Of a DNA stretch of 64,000 nt, positions 11,263 to 50,980 are shown in pieces. Each line of letters opens with the position of its first letter. Position 1 is the first letter of the stretch. Below the pieces are notes generated by a model. The model worked only from the letters and a program-made list of their open reading frames with translations. It ran no database searches and was not told the origin of the DNA. This DNA comes from Escherichia phage slur02: sequence record NC_028927.1, one strand, 5' to 3'. The position numbers and the translations under genes were made by a program.

Positions 11263-11943
11263 TTATTTTAATGTTACGAAAGAAGAATTGCGTGTTTCAC
11301 GAATTAAAACTGATCCGTCACGGTTAATGTAATAAATTAAGCTAAATAATGTTTGGTGTGCAGAAGCATGCTCAAAACTAGTTGGGTGAGATTTCCAATC
11401 CGGAGTTTCAGCGATCCATTGATAAATCCACCAAGGAACAGTACAGAATCCTGGATTTTTTCCAATCAACTGAAGATTCGGGCTAAAGTTTTCCGGAAGA
11501 GTAAATACACACGGCTTTTCAGATTCAATAATCTCAGCTACAGCCTGTTCGAATTTTTCTTCAACAAAAGGAGTATCTTCAATCAAAACATCGGTATTTT
11601 CAGGAATTTTATCCGTTTCTACTACTTCAATTTTAATGTCAGATTTAACTGGAGAATCAATCAAAAGTGCTGCTTCTGGATTGACTTCTTCATCGTCATA
11701 TTTTAATCCCTCTGCAGCATCAGCAGCATCAATTAAGTCTTTAATAGATAACCCATCAGTCTCTGGCATAGGTTCACTAGCGAGCTTCTGGAGGGCTTCT
11801 TCAATATCAACAACGATATTATCAAAAGATTTATTCTTTTTGACCTTTATACCAAACTGTTCAGCATATTCAGCTAATTTAGCTTTAGCTTCTTTATTAT
11901 CATCAAGAGCCTTCAGCTCTGCAATATAATCTTTATCTATCAT
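11263..11943 (-). CDS. inh: Inh, inhibitor of prohead protease (internal head protein-like)
   Basis: 226 aa acidic protein immediately after hoc, as in T4. Confidence 0.7.
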   Translation of the reverse strand: MIDKDYIAELKALDDNKEAKAKLAEYAEQFGIKVKKNKSFDNIVVDIEEALQKLASEPMPETDGLSIKDLIDAADAAEGLKYDDEEVNPEAALLIDSPVKSDIKIEVVETDKIPENTDVLIEDTPFVEEKFEQAVAEIIESEKPCVFTLPENFSPNLQLIGKNPGFCTVPWWIYQWIAETPDWKSHPTSFEHASAHQTLFSLIYYINRDGSVLIRETRNSSFVTLK

Positions 11944-11956
11944 AATATTTCCTCAG

Positions 11957-11964
11957 TATAAATA
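11957..11964 (+). promoter_or_regulatory. late-type promoter upstream of the seg endonuclease gene
   Basis: Exact TATAAATA 29 bp before the ATG at 11993. Confidence 0.5.
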
Positions 11965-11992
11965 TAGATATATTTATTACTCGGAAAATAGT

Positions 11993-12610
11993 ATGTACCA
12001 CTTTGTATATGAAACAACAAATCTAATAAATGGTAAAAAGTATATAGGAAAACACTCTACTGATGACTTGAATGATGGTTATCTTGGTTCCGGTAAGGCA
12101 ATTCAGCAGGCTATAAAGAAATATGGTGAAAACAATTTCTCTAGAACAATACTAAAAGAGTTTAAAACTTCCGAAGAAGCGTACATGTATGAAGAAAAAA
12201 TTATAACTCCTGAACTAATAAAAAGCAAAAATTACTATAATATGAAACCTGGTGGAATTGGTGGAATTGTTATGACTACAGATGTTATAGCAAAGATGAA
12301 AGAATCTTCCGCTAAAAGATTTGAAAACTCACCGGGCACGGTATTAGGTAAAACTTGTTATACTAATGGAACTAAAAATATTTTTATTAAACCTGGAGAA
12401 CTTGTTCCAGAAGGATTTGTAAAAGGGATGGTTCATCCTAATAGAAAGTCCAGAAAAGGATGTAAAGTCAAACCGACTACCACAGGAACTTTTTGGGTCA
12501 ATAATGGCGCAATAAATAAATTAATACAACCAGACGGTATTATTCCCGACGGATTTATTAAAGGTCGTCTCATGAAAAGAGATTCTAAAGGCAAATTTAG
12601 TAAGGCATAA
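11993..12610 (+). CDS. GIY-YIG homing endonuclease, Seg family
   Basis: N-terminal GIY-YIG module (YHFVYETTNL...GKKYIGKHS), 205 aa; sits between inh and uvsW where T4 carries a seg gene. Which seg ortholog it is cannot be decided from memory. Confidence 0.8.
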   Translation: MYHFVYETTNLINGKKYIGKHSTDDLNDGYLGSGKAIQQAIKKYGENNFSRTILKEFKTSEEAYMYEEKIITPELIKSKNYYNMKPGGIGGIVMTTDVIAKMKESSAKRFENSPGTVLGKTCYTNGTKNIFIKPGELVPEGFVKGMVHPNRKSRKGCKVKPTTTGTFWVNNGAINKLIQPDGIIPDGFIKGRLMKRDSKGKFSKA

Positions 12611-15332: not shown

Positions 15333-15731
15333 TTATACTCTATTACTGGAAGCCAGTTGCAATTTTATCTGCTCAATATCATCAGGATTATCGATGACCG
15401 AAAAGCGTATTTCTACTATCAGAGTATAATCATCATAAACGGGTATCACATTAACTGATAATTTATCAATACGTGGCTCATAGTTTCTTACTGCGCTTTC
15501 AATGTTACGCTCAACAGTATCAGCAGTAAGAGGAGTCATATTCTCAAAAAGCTGGTCAGATAAATCGCATCCAAATTCTGGGTCAAATGGCCTTGACCCT
15601 TTTCTGGTTGTAATAATTCCCAAAAGGCTATTTTTAATTGACCTTAATCCAAGAGATCTGGAAACGTCTTTGTCCCAGTCCATTTTCATTTCTGGGTCGA
15701 TGTCAGAATAAAGCTTATTAATATTTGCCAT
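15333..15731 (-). CDS. 25: baseplate wedge protein gp25
   Basis: 132 aa; T4 position and length. Confidence 0.9.
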   Translation of the reverse strand: MANINKLYSDIDPEMKMDWDKDVSRSLGLRSIKNSLLGIITTRKGSRPFDPEFGCDLSDQLFENMTPLTADTVERNIESAVRNYEPRIDKLSVNVIPVYDDYTLIVEIRFSVIDNPDDIEQIKLQLASSNRV

Positions 15732-16357
15732 TATAATAGCTCAAAGAATTCTTTGAGTCCTCTTATTACATGAGCATGGGTTTTTCCACACTCTGGACAT
15801 TTAATTGGAACAGCCAAATAAACAGTAGGCTTTAAAAGCATATCTTTTATAGCTACAATATCTGACTCTGTGATGATAGAGTATAAATCTTCCAGCTCTT
15901 TTTCATTTAAGTCTTCAACTGGAATGCTTTCCCCGTTAGCGTGAATCGTTTCTATACATGATACTATCATGTGGGCTATATTTTTATCATCAAAAATTTT
16001 AGGGTATCGGAATTTAATTTTAATGTCACCCAGTGTATACCAGAGGTCTTCTGGTGCATCTATTTGTGTATGTAATAGATTTATATGGGTTGGTATTTCA
16101 GTTCCACAGGTGCACTTCCAGGAGTTTTCGTGATTAACTTCTCCAAGAGAATGCGCCCATAAATGAATCAACAATAGCTCTGATTCTTGGCGGTTTAAAT
16201 CTTTTGCATTTGTGCAGTCTTTGATTAGCTTTTTAACAATTACTTCTACGGAACCATTATTTTTGGCAGTAATAAGTTCTAGATATTCTTTAAGCGTGAA
16301 TGCGCGACAATTGATTATTTTAGAACCAACTCTCACATCAAATTTGTATTCATACAT
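15731..16357 (-). CDS. 26: baseplate hub protein gp26
   Basis: 208 aa; ATGA overlap with gene 25; divergent from gene 51. Confidence 0.85.
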
Positions 16358-16378
16358 ATTTAGCTCCTTTATTTATCA

Positions 16379-16390
16379 TATTTATAAATA
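16379..16390. promoter_or_regulatory. overlapping divergent late promoters for genes 26 (minus) and 51 (plus)
   Basis: The plus strand reads TATTTATAAATA: TATAAATA on the plus strand at 16383-16390 and on the minus strand at 16379-16386. Confidence 0.55.
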
Positions 16391-16407
16391 GAATAAAAGG
16401 AGCATCT

Positions 16408-17157
16408 ATGGCAAACATTATTCGTTGTAAATTACCAGATGGTGTTCATCGTTTTAAACCATTTACGGTAGAAGATTATCGAGATTTTTTGTTAGTTCGA
16501 AACGATATAGAACATCGGTCACCACAAGAACAAAAAGAAGTAATTGCTGATTTAATTGCTGATTATTTTGGAGACTATCCAAAGACTTGGCAACCATTTA
16601 TATTTTTGCAGGTATTTGTAGGGTCTATAGGTAAAACTAAAGTACCGGTCACATTTGTATGTCCAAAATGTAAAAAAGAAAAGACAGTTCCATTTGAAAT
16701 ATATCAAAAAGAATTAAAGGAACCTATTTTTGATGTAGCTAATGTTAAAATTAAATTAAAGTTTCCTTCTGAGTTTTATGAAAATAAAGCAAAGATGATT
16801 ACTGAAAATATTCATTCTGTTCAAGTAGATGAAACTTGGTATGATTGGAAGGAAATTAGCGAGTCCAGTCAAATAGAACTAGTTGACGCCATCGAGATAG
16901 AAACATTAGAACAAATTCTCGATGCAATGAATCCTATTAATTTAACTCTACATATGTCATGCTGTAATAAGTACATTAAAAAATACACTGATATAGTAGA
17001 TGTGTTTAAGCTATTAGTTAACCCAGATGAGATATTTACTTTTTATCAAATTAATCACACACTTGTAAAAAGTAATTATAGCTTAAATTCAATAATGAAA
17101 ATGATTCCTGCCGAGCGCGGATTCGTATTAAAACTGATTGAGAAGGATAAACAATAA
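16408..17157 (+). CDS. 51: baseplate hub assembly protein gp51
   Basis: 249 aa; late promoter upstream. Confidence 0.85.
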
Positions 17158-18332
17158 TGAGTATGTTGCAACGCCCCGGATATCCAAATCTCAGCGTTAA
17201 ATTATTTGATAGCTACGACGCTTGGAGTAATAATAGATTTGTTGAATTAGCTGCTACTATTACCACATTAACTATGCGGGATTCTCTTTATGGCCGAAAT
17301 GAAGGAATGCTGCAGTTTTATGATTCTAAAAACATCCATACAAAAATGGATGGAAATGAAATAATTCAGATTTCTGTAGCTAATGCAAATGATATTAATA
17401 ATGTTAAAACACGAATTTATGGATGTAAGCATTTTTCCGTGTCAGTAGATTCAAAAGGTGATAACATCATTGCTATTGAATTGGGAACTATTCATTCTAT
17501 AGAAAATCTTAAATTTGGTAGACCATTTTTCCCTGATGCAGGTGAATCTATAAAAGAAATGCTTGGTGTCATTTATCAAGATCGCACATTATTAACTCCA
17601 GCGATAAATGCTATAAATGCTTATGTTCCTGATATTCCATGGACTAGCACATTTGAAAACTATTTGTCATATGTAAGAGAAGTTGCTCTAGCTGTAGGAA
17701 GCGACAAATTTGTATTTGTATGGCAAGACATCATGGGAGTTAACATGATGGACTATGATATGATGATAAATCAAGAACCATATCCAATGATTGTCGGTGA
17801 GCCATCTTTAATAGGTCAATTTGTCCAAGAATTAAAATACCCATTAGCATATGATTTTGTTTGGTTGACTAAATCGAATCCTCACAAACGTGACCCAATG
17901 AAAAATGCTACTATCTATGCTCATTCATTTTTAGATTCTTCACTGCCAATGATTACTACAGGAAAGGGCGAAAACTCTATTGTGGTGTCAAGGTCAGGTG
18001 CTTATTCTGAAATGACTTATAGGAATGGATATGAAGAAGCTATTCGTCTTCAAACTATGGCACAATATGACGGCTATGCTAAATGTTCTACTGTCGGTAA
18101 TTTTAACTTGACTCCTGGTGTTAAAATTATTTTTAATGATAGTAAAAACCAATTTAAAACAGAATTTTACGTTGATGAAGTTATCCATGAATTATCAAAT
18201 AATAATTCAGTAACTCATCTATATATGTTCACTAATGCAACGAAACTGGAAACAATAGACCCAGTTAAGGTTAAAAATGAATTTAAATCTGATACTACCA
18301 CTGAAGAAAGTAGTTCTTCCAATAAGCAATAA
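17157..18332 (+). CDS. 27: baseplate hub protein gp27
   Basis: 391 aa; T4 length and order. Confidence 0.9.
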
Positions 18333-18810
18333 AGAAGTTTCTATTCCTAAAATGGGTCTTAAACATTATAACATTTTAAAAGATGTTAAAGGTCCTGATG
18401 AAAATTTAAAACTTCTTATTGATTCTATTTGTCCGAATTTATCACCGGCAGAAGTTGATTTCGTTTCTATTCATTTATTGGAATTTAATGGAAAGATTAA
18501 ATCTCGTAAAGAAATAGATGGCTATACTTATGACATTAATGATGTCTATGTATGCCAAAGATTAGAATTTCAATACCAAGGAAATACATTTTATTTTAGA
18601 CCTCCTGGAAAATTTGAACAATTTTTAACGGTGAGCGATATGTTATCTAAATGCTTGCTTAAGGTCAACGATGAAGTTAAAGAAATTAATTTTCTTGAGA
18701 TGCCAGCATTCGTTTTAAAATGGGCAAATGATATTTTTACAACTTTAGCAATTCCTGGCCCTAATGGTCCAATAACCGGAATTGGCAATATTATTGGATT
18801 ATTTGAATGA
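18277..18810 (+). CDS. 28: baseplate hub distal subunit gp28
   Basis: 177 aa; overlaps the 3' end of gene 27. Confidence 0.85.
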
Positions 18811-25087: not shown

Positions 25088-27184
25088 TTATCCTTGAACG
25101 AACTTGTAAGGCATGTTTGTAATATCTATGCAAGACGCAATAATTCCAAGAGATGATTCTACTTTCTGTTTAACATTTGATGAAACAAATGATGCAAAGT
25201 CAACTCTGTCTTCTACTTCAATATCACCTGTCATTGCAACTACTTCGCCGGTTTCCATTAGATGGTCACCGTCATAAATTACCGATTCGGTGAGTTCTTC
25301 TGTGGTCATAACTTCAGCTTGAATAAGTTTTGTATTATTAGATGTTGTTCCGTCATTATTAGAAGCATCAGTTATTTTATTAACTTTAACCATCAATCCG
25401 CGCGGTAGAATAACTTCAGCTTCTGTTGCTATTCCGAGACTTCCTGGATATACAACATTAACTTTATGAGCTCCATCAATTGCCCATCCTATTTGAACTT
25501 TAACGTATTCAGGATTTTCTTTATACGCTCTTATTTCGTTTGGATTAATAGTTATTCCTTCTTCATTTTTATCAACTGTTAATTCATTGCGAGCTTCTGG
25601 TTCTAAAAGACCAATACCAGCATGTGTAATTCCAAAACGTCCAAAAATGATAGGAGTTAAAGAAGTAGATACAAAATTTCTGAAATAGAACACTTTATTT
25701 TTAACTAGCGCTTCGTATATAGGAGCAGTCATACTTTGAGCACGATAAACTGTAATGCCTTCCGGTATGCGGTCACCATTTTCAAAAGCTGAATCTAAAT
25801 TATTTATAGCAGATTCAATTTCTTTTTCACTCATTACATCATATCGTTCTGGATTGTAACGACCTAAAAGAAGATTATTGATGTCAGTATATCCTGAACC
25901 ACAATACTCTCTAATGCCGCGCTTTTGTGATGGAGTATATTTAGAACCATCACGGGCAATAGTAATATCAATCATTGGACCTGCACCAATTCCAGAAAAA
26001 CTATAAATCATTCTTTTGAGGAATTTAGTTTTTGCTGCGTTCCAGGAATTTTTAGTTATTTCTTCCCAGACTTCATCTGGTTGTCCTTTACGATTTTTAT
26101 TATGATTAGCAAGCCATTTATCTTTATAATCTTCAAAGAATTGATTTACAGCTGCTGCGTATTTCTCTAAACATTTTATTGAAGTAGTTGGTTCATTTTT
26201 AATTGCATTAAAAATTACTTCTTTAATTTTTTCTGAAACTTCACCGACTTGACTCATTGGAAAGAATTTATAATCATAGTGAAGTTCATCTGCCGTTCCT
26301 TCAGCAATAATTTTTGCTGCCTTAGTTTTAGAAGCTAATGAATTAATTCCAAGCTTCATTTCTTCTGCTTCGGGAATTAAAGGAGCGGTAGCAGGTTTAT
26401 TGAAATTAGCTGCGGTAGATTCATACTTCTGGAATAATTCACTTTCAAATCTAGAAGATTCCAATGACTGACTTTGCGCAATTGCTCTACGTGAAATTTT
26501 AACTTTAACGATTACAGCTTGGTCAGAACGTTTATCATTTTCTTGCGCAATAGATGCTGCAATTGCCTCATTTTTAGTTACTTGAGCTCCAGTATCTTTA
26601 TTGATATAAACATCACCGACCTTCGATTCAACTTTAGTAAAGAGCTCGGTACTAATTTCCGGAACCCCTGGAATGTCTTCTAGTGATACATTTTTGCGAT
26701 GTATAAGAATATATGCATACTTTTTATCGTAATCCCAGAGTTCCTTAAGAAGGACGTATCTGCCACCTGAACGACTACGGATAAGTCTATCAGCAATAAC
26801 TTGAATTTGTCGAGCTTGACCAGCGGTTTTAGACTTAAGAATACGGAGCATACAAGCATCAATTTTATATTGACGCATTGTTTGCATTGCAACAGTAAAA
26901 ACTGAATTGATATAATTAATTGGGCTTGGACCAAGACCTTTCAATTTAGCAATTGAACCTTTAGCAGTTAATGTAAAAGGAACAATATGCATCATTTTAT
27001 CGCCCATTTTTAAATCGCGATTAGTATCACCTCCAGATGTATAGGTACATAAACGAAAGCCTGGTTGTTCAATTGCATCATCAACATGAACTGAAAAAAT
27101 TTGTGGTATTTTCTTCTTTGGGTTTAAGTTTGTAATCGGAAGAGTAGTATCTTCGTCAAATAATTCTGTAATGAGTTCCATCAT
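25088..27184 (-). CDS. alt: Alt, capsid-packaged ADP-ribosyltransferase (698 aa)
   Basis: Alt-type N-terminus MELITELFDEDTTLP...; ADP-ribosyltransferase motifs YRAQ, FVSTSL, EAEVILP; adjacent to gene 30 as in T4. Confidence 0.85.
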   Translation of the reverse strand: MMELITELFDEDTTLPITNLNPKKKIPQIFSVHVDDAIEQPGFRLCTYTSGGDTNRDLKMGDKMMHIVPFTLTAKGSIAKLKGLGPSPINYINSVFTVAMQTMRQYKIDACMLRILKSKTAGQARQIQVIADRLIRSRSGGRYVLLKELWDYDKKYAYILIHRKNVSLEDIPGVPEISTELFTKVESKVGDVYINKDTGAQVTKNEAIAASIAQENDKRSDQAVIVKVKISRRAIAQSQSLESSRFESELFQKYESTAANFNKPATAPLIPEAEEMKLGINSLASKTKAAKIIAEGTADELHYDYKFFPMSQVGEVSEKIKEVIFNAIKNEPTTSIKCLEKYAAAVNQFFEDYKDKWLANHNKNRKGQPDEVWEEITKNSWNAAKTKFLKRMIYSFSGIGAGPMIDITIARDGSKYTPSQKRGIREYCGSGYTDINNLLLGRYNPERYDVMSEKEIESAINNLDSAFENGDRIPEGITVYRAQSMTAPIYEALVKNKVFYFRNFVSTSLTPIIFGRFGITHAGIGLLEPEARNELTVDKNEEGITINPNEIRAYKENPEYVKVQIGWAIDGAHKVNVVYPGSLGIATEAEVILPRGLMVKVNKITDASNNDGTTSNNTKLIQAEVMTTEELTESVIYDGDHLMETGEVVAMTGDIEVEDRVDFASFVSSNVKQKVESSLGIIASCIDITNMPYKFVQG

Positions 27185-38875: not shown

Positions 38876-40463
<1,588 letters not shown>

Positions 40464-48736: not shown

Positions 48737-49645
48737 TTAAAGGTCATTCAAAAGGTCATCTAGGTCCGTGTCATCAGCACTAGATGAACTACCAGAGCTT
48801 GAGCTCATAAAATCATCTTCAGTTTTTGTATTGAAGTCATCAACATTGAATGCATCCAAATCATCAGCAACTTTATCAGCTTTCTTAGCAGCAGTTGCAG
48901 CAGCACCGCCCATCACAGCAGTTCCCATAACTTGACCAAATTTAGTGCTCAGTTCTTCAAACGATTTGAATTTATCTTTAGAAGTCATTTCAGAAAGGTC
49001 AACCATTTGTTCGAACAGTTCTTTCTGGAAAGATTCATCATCAATGTTTGGAATCGCAGATTGATTCAGGAATTTAGATTCGTCGTAGTTACTAAATCCA
49101 GAAACTTGTTTAACTTTCAGTACAAAGTTAGCACCTTCCCACGGACAAGTTACATCAACTGGAGTTTCACCCATTTCAACATCAACCGCAATCATTGCAT
49201 TGATTTTATCCCAGATTTTCTTACCGAAACGGTATTTAAATACTTTACCTTCGTTTTCTGGAGCAGCTGGGTCTTTTACTACAAGAATGTTAGCCCAGTA
49301 AGAAGTTTTACGTTTAACAAGACTGTACTCTTTATTGTCAGTGTTGTACAGATCATTTTTACTGATGTACTGACATACTGGGCAAGAATCGTAATCACCG
49401 TGGGTAGATGAACAGTTTTCAATATACCATTTACCATTTTTCTTGAAACCGTGATTTACAAGAATTGCGAATGGTGCTTGTTCATCATTTTTAGACGGAA
49501 GAAAACGAATTACTGCTTGACCATTACCCGCATTGTCGAGTTTCAGTTTCCACTCGCCTTTATCTTCAGAAGAAAAACCACCTTTATTTCCAGCCAGTTT
49601 AGCCATTTGTGCAGCGAGTTCAGCAGTAGATTTACGTTTAAACAT
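48737..49645 (-). CDS. 32: single-stranded DNA-binding protein gp32
   Basis: 302 aa; zinc site [14 protein letters not shown]; acidic Ser/Asp-rich C-terminus; strong terminator downstream. Confidence 0.95.
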
Positions 49646-49744: not shown

Positions 49745-50398
49745 TTAATACTTGCAAGATTTCACAGTTTCAATGAAAACATTTTTAGCTTTCTGTGAAT
49801 CAATATTTAAAATTTTTCTATAAGCCTTTAACTTTATAGAATAATTATTCCAGACTAAATTATCAGTCTGTTCATCATGTTTATCAATTATATTTAAAAA
49901 CGAATCAAGCAAGATAAACGTCTCAAACGAAATTATGTTCGATTGCAGAAGTTTAAAAATATAACTTGACTGAACTTTTGGATTATATTCAAAGATTTCT
50001 TTAAAAGCAGAAACTTCAACTTTTTTACTAAAATAATAAATGTTGCGAATATCTTCTTCAAACTTAAATTTAATTTGCTTTAAGCGTCCGATATATTCAC
50101 GATAAAACACAAGTGCATCAGCGTCAGAGATGTCACCAATCCAAGCATCTTGGTTAGCAACAAGATTGCTTATAAAGATTAAAGCAAGTTCCTTTAATTT
50201 ATATTTTTCTGATAACTTCTGGAAAAAATACTTATCCCTTCGCTTTTGATAAGCGGCATCAGACACCCGCATGCACCAATTATACTTAATAACATCATAC
50301 TTTCCATTCATATGCTGTTTTATCATTAAGTATAATTTATAAACTGATTTACCATCAATGTATCTTTCACCACCAGCAGGCATGCGGAGTTTAATCAT
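49745..50398 (-). CDS. 59: helicase loader gp59
   Basis: 217 aa; directly adjacent to gene 32 (no seg gene between them). Confidence 0.9.
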   Translation of the reverse strand: MIKLRMPAGGERYIDGKSVYKLYLMIKQHMNGKYDVIKYNWCMRVSDAAYQKRRDKYFFQKLSEKYKLKELALIFISNLVANQDAWIGDISDADALVFYREYIGRLKQIKFKFEEDIRNIYYFSKKVEVSAFKEIFEYNPKVQSSYIFKLLQSNIISFETFILLDSFLNIIDKHDEQTDNLVWNNYSIKLKAYRKILNIDSQKAKNVFIETVKSCKY

Positions 50399-50733
50399 AG
50401 TAGAAAATCTAATGTATTAGTTTTTTCACAACGAACAACAGAAGGACGTAAAAGATTTTCGTCGATAGCTTCTGACTGAATTTTTTCAATTATACCCGAA
50501 GGAATAAATTTAGCAAATTGAGTTTCAGGAATAGAGTTTTCTTCCAAGAATGCTGTCGTAGCTTCAAGATAACTCATTCCAAACTCTTCTACCATTTTTT
50601 CAATAATAAATCCATTTTCTTGGCGGTCAAGAAGCTTTGCAATTTCATCCTTTTCTTTCTTAATTGAAAGTTCTTTTTCTGAAAGACCGGTCTCATCGAC
50701 CGGACGAATATCATTTAGAGAAAACTGTGTCAT
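50395..50733 (-). CDS. 33: late transcription co-activator gp33
   Basis: 112 aa from MTQFSLNDIR; the track extends 3 codons upstream. Confidence 0.8.
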   Translation of the reverse strand: MTQFSLNDIRPVDETGLSEKELSIKKEKDEIAKLLDRQENGFIIEKMVEEFGMSYLEATTAFLEENSIPETQFAKFIPSGIIEKIQSEAIDENLLRPSVVRCEKTNTLDFLL

Positions 50734-50980
50734 AAAGTTCAACTACCTCTTCAGTTTCAGCTTCAAACACATCACGGTTATCTTTATGATACAAAGCTAA
50801 TAGACGATTAAACATCTTACCATCAACACCAAGTTCATCTTTGGCACGAATTCGAATATCTTTAATCAGTTCATTATAACCGGAAATTTTCAGTTTATGA
50901 TCAGATGCTTCTTTAATAAATTTAGCCAAGTCTTCGCCGTGGATAGCTTCATCAAATTCAACCATTTCTTTTTTAGCCAT
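50711..50980 (-). CDS. dsbA: dsDNA-binding protein DsbA
   Basis: 89 aa; position between rnh and 33. Confidence 0.8.
   Translation of the reverse strand: MAKKEMVEFDEAIHGEDLAKFIKEASDHKLKISGYNELIKDIRIRAKDELGVDGKMFNRLLALYHKDNRDVFEAETEEVVELYDTVFSK

Follow-up and report, generated by a model that had tools for sequence, protein, structure and literature searches.

Overlapping promoters are said to direct divergent transcription in the base plate gene cluster of phage T4, as Scarlato, Storlazzi, Gargano and Cascino reportedly described in 1989 (Virology 171:475). Our own full-text literature search for overlapping or divergent late promoters found nothing on T4. The box of a T4-type late promoter lies at −13 to −6 (PMC1524935), and cryo-EM of the late transcription complex has shown gp55 reading the non-template strand of the opened box, with flipped bases at −12, −9 and −8, while gp33 and the gp45 ring hold the upstream duplex (PMC7892883). 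The sliding clamp stands at the upstream end and its activation is polarity-specific (strand-polar); the activated complex covers about 13 bp more on the upstream side than the basal complex does and makes contacts near −39 to −35, and supercoiling favours basal gp55 transcription (PMC2988020). Among relatives of T4, Nolan et al. (2006) predicted two late promoters in RB69, Pl:118620 (+) and Pl:118672 (−) (PMC1524935, Additional file 5), and both of the late promoters between genes 4 and 48 of the Aeromonas phage Aeh1 (PMC1524935). T4 late promoters have also been reviewed as lying inside hairpins that sequester a ribosome-binding site (RBS), namely those of genes e, soc and I-TevI, with genes 25 and 26 also listed. 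Finally, Warman, Forrest, Wade and Grainger described bidirectional sigma-70 promoters that result from the symmetry of the −10 element (bioRxiv 10.1101/2020.01.31.928960); the start spacings enriched in their data were 18 most often, and also 29, 23, 12, 10 and 7.

The site described here lies in a stretch of 64,000 nucleotides that was analysed as a whole (the window). Over 1.5 kb around the site, the DNA matches Escherichia phage slur04 (Tequatrovirus) at 100% identity and T4 at about 98%. Gene 26 (15731–16357, − strand) encodes a baseplate hub protein of 208 residues (Pfam PF12322) that is 100% identical to T4 gp26, and gene 51 (16408–17157, + strand) encodes a baseplate hub assembly protein of 249 residues (also PF12322) that is 95% identical to T4 gp51. 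Gene 26 heads a leftward late unit that continues with gene 25 (15333–15731), and gene 51 heads a rightward late unit that continues with genes 27 (17157–18332) and 28 (18277–18810). The T4 record has the same neighbours (25 and then uvsY leftward, 27 rightward) and annotates gene 26 as a baseplate hub subunit (−) and gene 51 as a hub assembly catalyst (+); the GenBank record of T4 contains no promoter features. The 50-bp gap between genes 26 and 51 is base-for-base identical to that of T4. The element in this gap is the classical T4 divergent late-promoter pair of the baseplate-hub cluster and is thus already known: compared with the T4 26/51 pair, the promoters do not differ at all, and gp51 differs at 13 of its 249 residues.

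Window positions 16379–16390 read TATTTATAAATA, a perfect 12-bp palindrome (its own reverse complement). Each strand carries an exact match to the late-promoter consensus, TATAAATA: the + strand box (16383–16390) belongs to gene 51 with its 27-28-29 cluster, the − strand box (16379–16386, read 16386->16379) to genes 26 and 25. The central TATA (16383–16386) is common to both boxes, an overlap of 4 bp. An earlier note on this DNA had reported a 12-bp sequence with the box on both strands in front of the divergent genes 26 and 51, and we found the same, with the two open reading frames (ORFs) flanking the gap. If each box occupies −13 to −6, the late start of gene 51 is predicted at an A, 6 nt past the box (16396, + strand), with a 12-nt leader, and that of gene 26 at an A as well (16373, − strand), with a 16-nt leader. 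The two predicted starts, 23 bp from each other, face outward. Each box is followed by the Shine-Dalgarno (SD) sequence AAGGAG, at 16397–16402 (+) for gene 51 and at 16364–16369 (−) for gene 26, and ends 18 nt (gene 51) or 22 nt (gene 26) from the start codon. We read the palindrome as a pair of back-to-back T4-type late promoters that overlap by 4 bp and are recognised by gp55, with a probability of about 0.9.

The behaviour of the box elsewhere in the window provides a measure for the two copies in the gap. The 8-mer TATAAATA occurs 18 times, versus 8.8 expected, and none of 100 shuffles of the window reached 18. Fourteen of the 18 boxes lie between ORFs; all 14 face the next gene on their own strand, 11 of them at 15–35 nt from its ATG. 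The other four are inside genes, a single one in antisense orientation. The two boxes between genes 26 and 51 have the same spacing as most of the other intergenic boxes. Both strands of the site have the further features of T4-type late promoters, namely the exact 8-bp box, the absence of a −35 element and a short distance to a downstream gene on the same strand. A search of the 26/51 gap for a sigma-70-type promoter (−35/−10 pair), an intrinsic terminator or an Rfam family found none. The only Rfam hit, a sub-threshold match to the S15 leader inside gene 51, was set aside as chance. We also considered a − strand box with one mismatch, GATAAATA (16377->16370), as the true promoter of gene 26 and rejected it: its start would fall within the SD of gene 26, and it is present in the T4 group only. 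This box, which lies just downstream of the − strand promoter, is therefore probably non-functional.

In T4, genes 25, 26, 51, 27, 28 and 29 have late RNA and late protein according to time-resolved RNA-seq and proteomics (PMC9697503 supplements), which is gene-level evidence for late expression of both clusters and comes from a phage whose 26/51 gap is that of the window. A T4 dRNA-seq study puts the number of phage start sites at 150 (bioRxiv 10.1101/2024.04.04.588121). Because genes 26 and 51 each head their own unit, are late in T4, and have the overlapping boxes as the only late boxes available to them, both promoters are very probably active, from the predicted starts at 16396 (+) and 16373 (−).

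The arrangement resembles the promoters of Warman et al. in that −10-type elements on opposite strands overlap and starts diverge. The 4-bp overlap and the predicted start spacing of 23 bp fall within that class (range 7–25 bp), and 23 is among the spacings enriched in their data. The recognition factor is a different one: the motif at 26/51 is the late box of the phage protein gp55, not a sigma-70 element, a −35 contact is absent, and the activator is a sliding clamp. Furthermore, the reciprocal stimulation that Warman et al. ascribe to sigma-70 R451 and position −18 has no established counterpart at 26/51, and the 26/51 pair drives two essential operons rather than pervasive or cryptic transcription. 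The pair thus works like the Warman class but, with a box that gp55 recognises in place of sigma-70, is not a member of it.

To follow the element through related phages, relatives of gene 51 were collected by tblastn among annotated phage genomes, where gp51 identity ranged between 98% and 26%, and 57 loci were added from IMG/VR; with the window, the set comprises 74 sequences. In 64 of the 74, genes 26 and 51 diverge across a gap of 46–70 bp, and the exact 12-mer is present in 53 of these 64 (the window and 52 gene 51 loci), once per locus and always in the gap. Because the two collections overlap, these 53 are more fairly counted as 26 distinct 62-nt contexts, which come from Tequatro-, Mosig-, Karam-, Jiaoda-, Gapriver-, Moon-, Dhaka- and Winklervirus and from Acinetobacter phages, at least nine genera, and the 12-mer is kept where gp51 identity falls to 46% (46–58% among distant carriers). 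RB69, which was fetched separately from the set of 53, has it too: the promoters Pl:118620 and Pl:118672 lie in its 26/51 gap (gene 26 ATG at 118622, gene 51 ATG at 118670), and contain the 12-mer, with the RB69 promoters being computational predictions and the spacers on both sides differing in sequence from those of T4. Across the 26 contexts, information content is 2.0 bits at all 12 positions of the palindrome versus 0.2–0.5 bits at the four bases on either side, and the spacers from the 12-mer to both SDs vary in length as well as in sequence. No base of the 12-mer lies outside both boxes, so this footprint needs no more than purifying selection on two promoters.

There are three other ways to account for the palindrome. 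It could additionally or mainly be the site of a dimeric DNA-binding regulator of both units, for example DsbA, which is encoded in the window. This explanation would fit the larger symmetry of the locus, because the perfect 12-bp palindrome is embedded in a 48-bp imperfect one (16361–16408, 71% complementary, centred on the 12-mer dyad), and it would also fit the reported properties of DsbA, which binds A/T-rich sites, including sites that overlap two late promoters (PMC2988020). We nevertheless regard it as improbable. Any motif that overlaps an inverted copy of itself yields a palindrome, one or both boxes already explain 12 of the 12 positions, and the flanking arms of the larger palindrome are conserved at the SDs only. 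DsbA itself binds weakly (in the micromolar range) and its gene is non-essential (PMC2988020), and nothing ties it to the 26/51 site.

An explanation that fares somewhat worse, and that we consider very improbable, is that one box alone works and the other is a by-product of A/T-rich symmetry, its gene being transcribed from elsewhere. In its favour, an 8-mer is short, and four of the 18 copies in this window are inside genes. The bases that belong to a single box (16379–16382 and 16387–16390) are, however, all invariant in the 26 contexts, amid variable neighbours. TATT precedes none of the 16 other TATAAATA boxes in the window, so the second box does not reflect a general flank preference of late promoters. 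Genes 26 and 51 both head their units and are late in T4, and the window contains no other exact box upstream of either (on the − strand the nearest is at 25801, on the + strand at 11957). Phages in which the boxes do not overlap still keep a box-like element on each strand (see below). Chance occurrence of the motif on both strands of an A/T-rich intergenic region (the window is 64% A+T and the gap richer still) has next to no probability, given that the 12-mer, found once, is expected 0.07 times per window (mean of 100 dinucleotide-preserving shuffles, 7 of which had at least one copy), and is already refuted by its exact conservation at the same place where gp51 is only 46–58% identical.

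The pair of overlapping late promoters takes other geometries in some relatives, all of which retain a box-like element on each strand. Krischvirus has TATAAATA on the + strand and, 4 nt leftward, the − strand candidate ACTAAATA, which carries C at −12; here the boxes are separated. In the Pseudomonas phage PspYZU05 the boxes are crossed (TATAAATA-ATACTAG-TATTTATA). A 10-bp palindrome, TATTTAAATA, lies in the 26/51 gap of the Aeromonas phages 44RR and 50AhydR13PP, with T in place of A at −12 of the variant boxes. At this Aeromonas-phage site Nolan et al. (2006) did not predict a late promoter (PMC1524935). Given the T at −12 and the missing prediction, dual promoter use is not established family-wide.

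A similar solution is found at a different junction in Aeh1. In the gap between its genes 4 (−) and 48 (+) (NC_005260 122786–122837; 337–388 of our locus L076) lies a perfect 14-bp palindrome, TATTTAGCTAAATA, that consists of two back-to-back copies of the variant late box CTAAATA, with CTCCTT and AAGGAG on its flanks. The 26/51 and 4/48 gaps thus share back-to-back late boxes on a perfect palindrome between divergent late genes, and differ in the gene junction, in the variant box CTAAATA of Aeh1 and in the TAAATA cores, which are 2 bp further apart in Aeh1.

In Slopekvirus and RB43-like phages the order tail-tube initiator -> 51 -> 26 -> 25 runs on one strand, and no box was found upstream of gene 51 in the ten loci of this type. 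At the level of sequence comparison, these genomes are a natural control, in which boxes go with the head-of-unit position. They have a terminator-like hairpin (GGGGC-loop-GCCCC-TTTT) directly before gene 51, about 30 nt upstream.

How two promoters would share 12 bp can be considered in light of the published late transcription complex. RNA polymerase with gp55 and gp33, activated by gp45, would open the DNA from the palindrome centre in one direction or the other. Rightward opening would give mRNA from about 16396 for genes 51-27-28-29, and leftward opening would give mRNA from about 16373 for genes 26-25. In the two promoters, the −12 adenines to be flipped would lie on adjacent base pairs, 16384 (+) and 16385 (−), the upstream duplex of each promoter would be the bubble and downstream DNA of the other, and both complexes would cover essentially the same roughly 40–50 bp. 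With so much DNA in common, we infer that the site takes one polymerase at a time.

This bears on how the earlier note had described the site. Its identification of overlapping divergent late promoters was right, and the comparative evidence and the T4 expression data indicate that both are used. Its term 'head-on' was wrong: the promoters stand back-to-back with predicted starts at 16373 (−) and 16396 (+), and the polymerases diverge. Because they move apart, elongating complexes cannot collide. The competition for gp55-RNA polymerase that the note expected would, in view of published footprint and structural data, be better put as mutual steric exclusion on one DNA segment at initiation.

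The polarity of clamp activation would add a second constraint. Because this activation is polarity-specific, any one clamp-polymerase complex is limited to a single promoter of the pair. Transcription to the left and to the right therefore probably relies on clamp-polymerase complexes of opposite orientation instead of a common pool, and the way in which the incoming complex faces probably determines the direction taken. Mutual stimulation through negative supercoils behind a departing polymerase is conceivable. A more far-reaching proposal is that the fixed 4-bp overlap is under selection for more than the upkeep of two promoters and acts as a coupled switch: the gp45 clamp, loaded at forks and nicks onto either strand, would by its orientation pick the hub operon that fires, negative supercoils from the departing polymerase would help to open the opposite promoter, the output ratio of the two paralog-headed hub operons would be tied to replication, and translation of read-through RNA would be blocked both ways. 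We consider this combination unlikely and offer it as speculation.

The larger symmetry around the 12-mer, the 48-bp imperfect palindrome, takes in the whole gap and involves both ribosome-binding sites. Within it, a perfect 8-bp inverted repeat, GCTCCTTT/AAAGGAGC (16363–16370 and 16396–16403), holds the two SDs. Read-through RNAs are predicted to fold with −14.7 kcal/mol (−) and −13.0 kcal/mol (+) (z-scores −2.3 and −2.5), with the SD paired, and RNAs from the predicted late starts are predicted to be unstructured (0 and −0.3 kcal/mol). Among relatives from 12 genera, 21 of 23 read-through RNAs have the SD paired with a probability of at least 0.73, and in late-start RNAs it is usually much less paired than in read-through RNAs. 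Thus, in the predictions, the SD is paired in long RNAs and free in late-start RNAs, as expected of an RBS-sequestering hairpin. In read-through RNA, the SD of the downstream gene would pair with the antisense of the SD of the other gene; RNAs from the late promoters would start inside the hairpin, lack the 5' arm and leave the ribosome site free.

Such a hairpin would resemble those of genes e, soc and I-TevI, in which long transcripts have a hairpin over the SD and late transcripts lack the 5' arm (a prediction for 26/51). It would differ from them in that one palindrome would serve both directions and in that the 5' arm is the antisense of the SD of another gene. The passage of a review that deals with RBS sequestration by RNA structure names genes 25 and 26 among the T4 genes for which it has been shown, citing Gruidl et al. 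1991 (Virology 184:359), and the proposal from our folding matches this account of T4 gene 26. Two divergent genes that both use GGAG will, however, automatically have SD/anti-SD pairing, so that its conservation is no proof of function. Covariation is unsuited to this hairpin, as SD conservation alone gives pairing and the spacer lengths differ. A function of the hairpin at the 26/51 gap is plausible.

The symmetry extends to the flanking proteins. Both gp26 and gp51 match Pfam PF12322 over the whole profile and align with each other at 19% identity (E = 1e-5), which by sequence similarity makes them distant paralogs, head to head around the palindrome. We considered whether the palindrome arose by inverted duplication and rejected this, because mirror-image similarity of the DNA does not reach beyond the gap despite the paralogy of the proteins. 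The palindrome is explained by functional signals (box, SD and ATG), and ancestry is not demonstrable.

As a discovery the element carries little weight, since the T4 pair is classical and the RB69 equivalent had already been predicted. What is added here is limited to how widely the element is conserved, to its variant geometries and to the symmetry with which the gap pairs the two SDs, all of which leave the overall picture unchanged. The site is nonetheless a clean natural example: 12 bp of DNA serve two essential operons, and the sequence is frozen across many genera because none of its bases falls outside both promoters. It would also make a convenient template for studying how the polarity of the sliding clamp selects one of two promoters when both cannot be occupied at once.

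Several side observations were made in the window. The − strand at 50395–50980 encodes the late-transcription coactivator gp33 (PF16805) and DsbA (PF11126) in overlapping ORFs, as in T4. Genes for gp55 and gp45 lie outside the window, and their presence in this phage is expected from the 100% identity to a complete Tequatrovirus genome. Within 15731–17157, gp26 is 100% and the adjoining gp51 only 95% identical to T4 (13 differences); this contrast in sequence identity hints that the 26/51 gap lies at, or close to, a mosaic or recombination boundary.

Further observations concern other late boxes of the window. Two exact + strand TATAAATA boxes stand in tandem at 884–891 and 943–950, 74 and 15 nt upstream of a gene that starts at 965. 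The box at 39412–39419 (+) is the only exact one antisense within a gene (38876–40000, −). The boxes at 39412 and 57039 have TCTT in front and so differ from the 12-mer by a single mismatch. The window also has two copies, at 49233 and 60414, of the 10-bp palindrome TATTTAAATA that the Aeromonas phages carry between genes 26 and 51. Finally, a second divergent junction between a − strand gene (11263–11943) and a + strand gene (11993–12610) contains a crossed pair at 11957–11978, in which TATAAATA on the + strand (11957–11964) is followed after 6 nt by AATAAATA on the − strand (11978->11971). The predicted transcripts of this pair would overlap by a few nt at their 5' ends, and its geometry is that of the 26/51 gap of PspYZU05.
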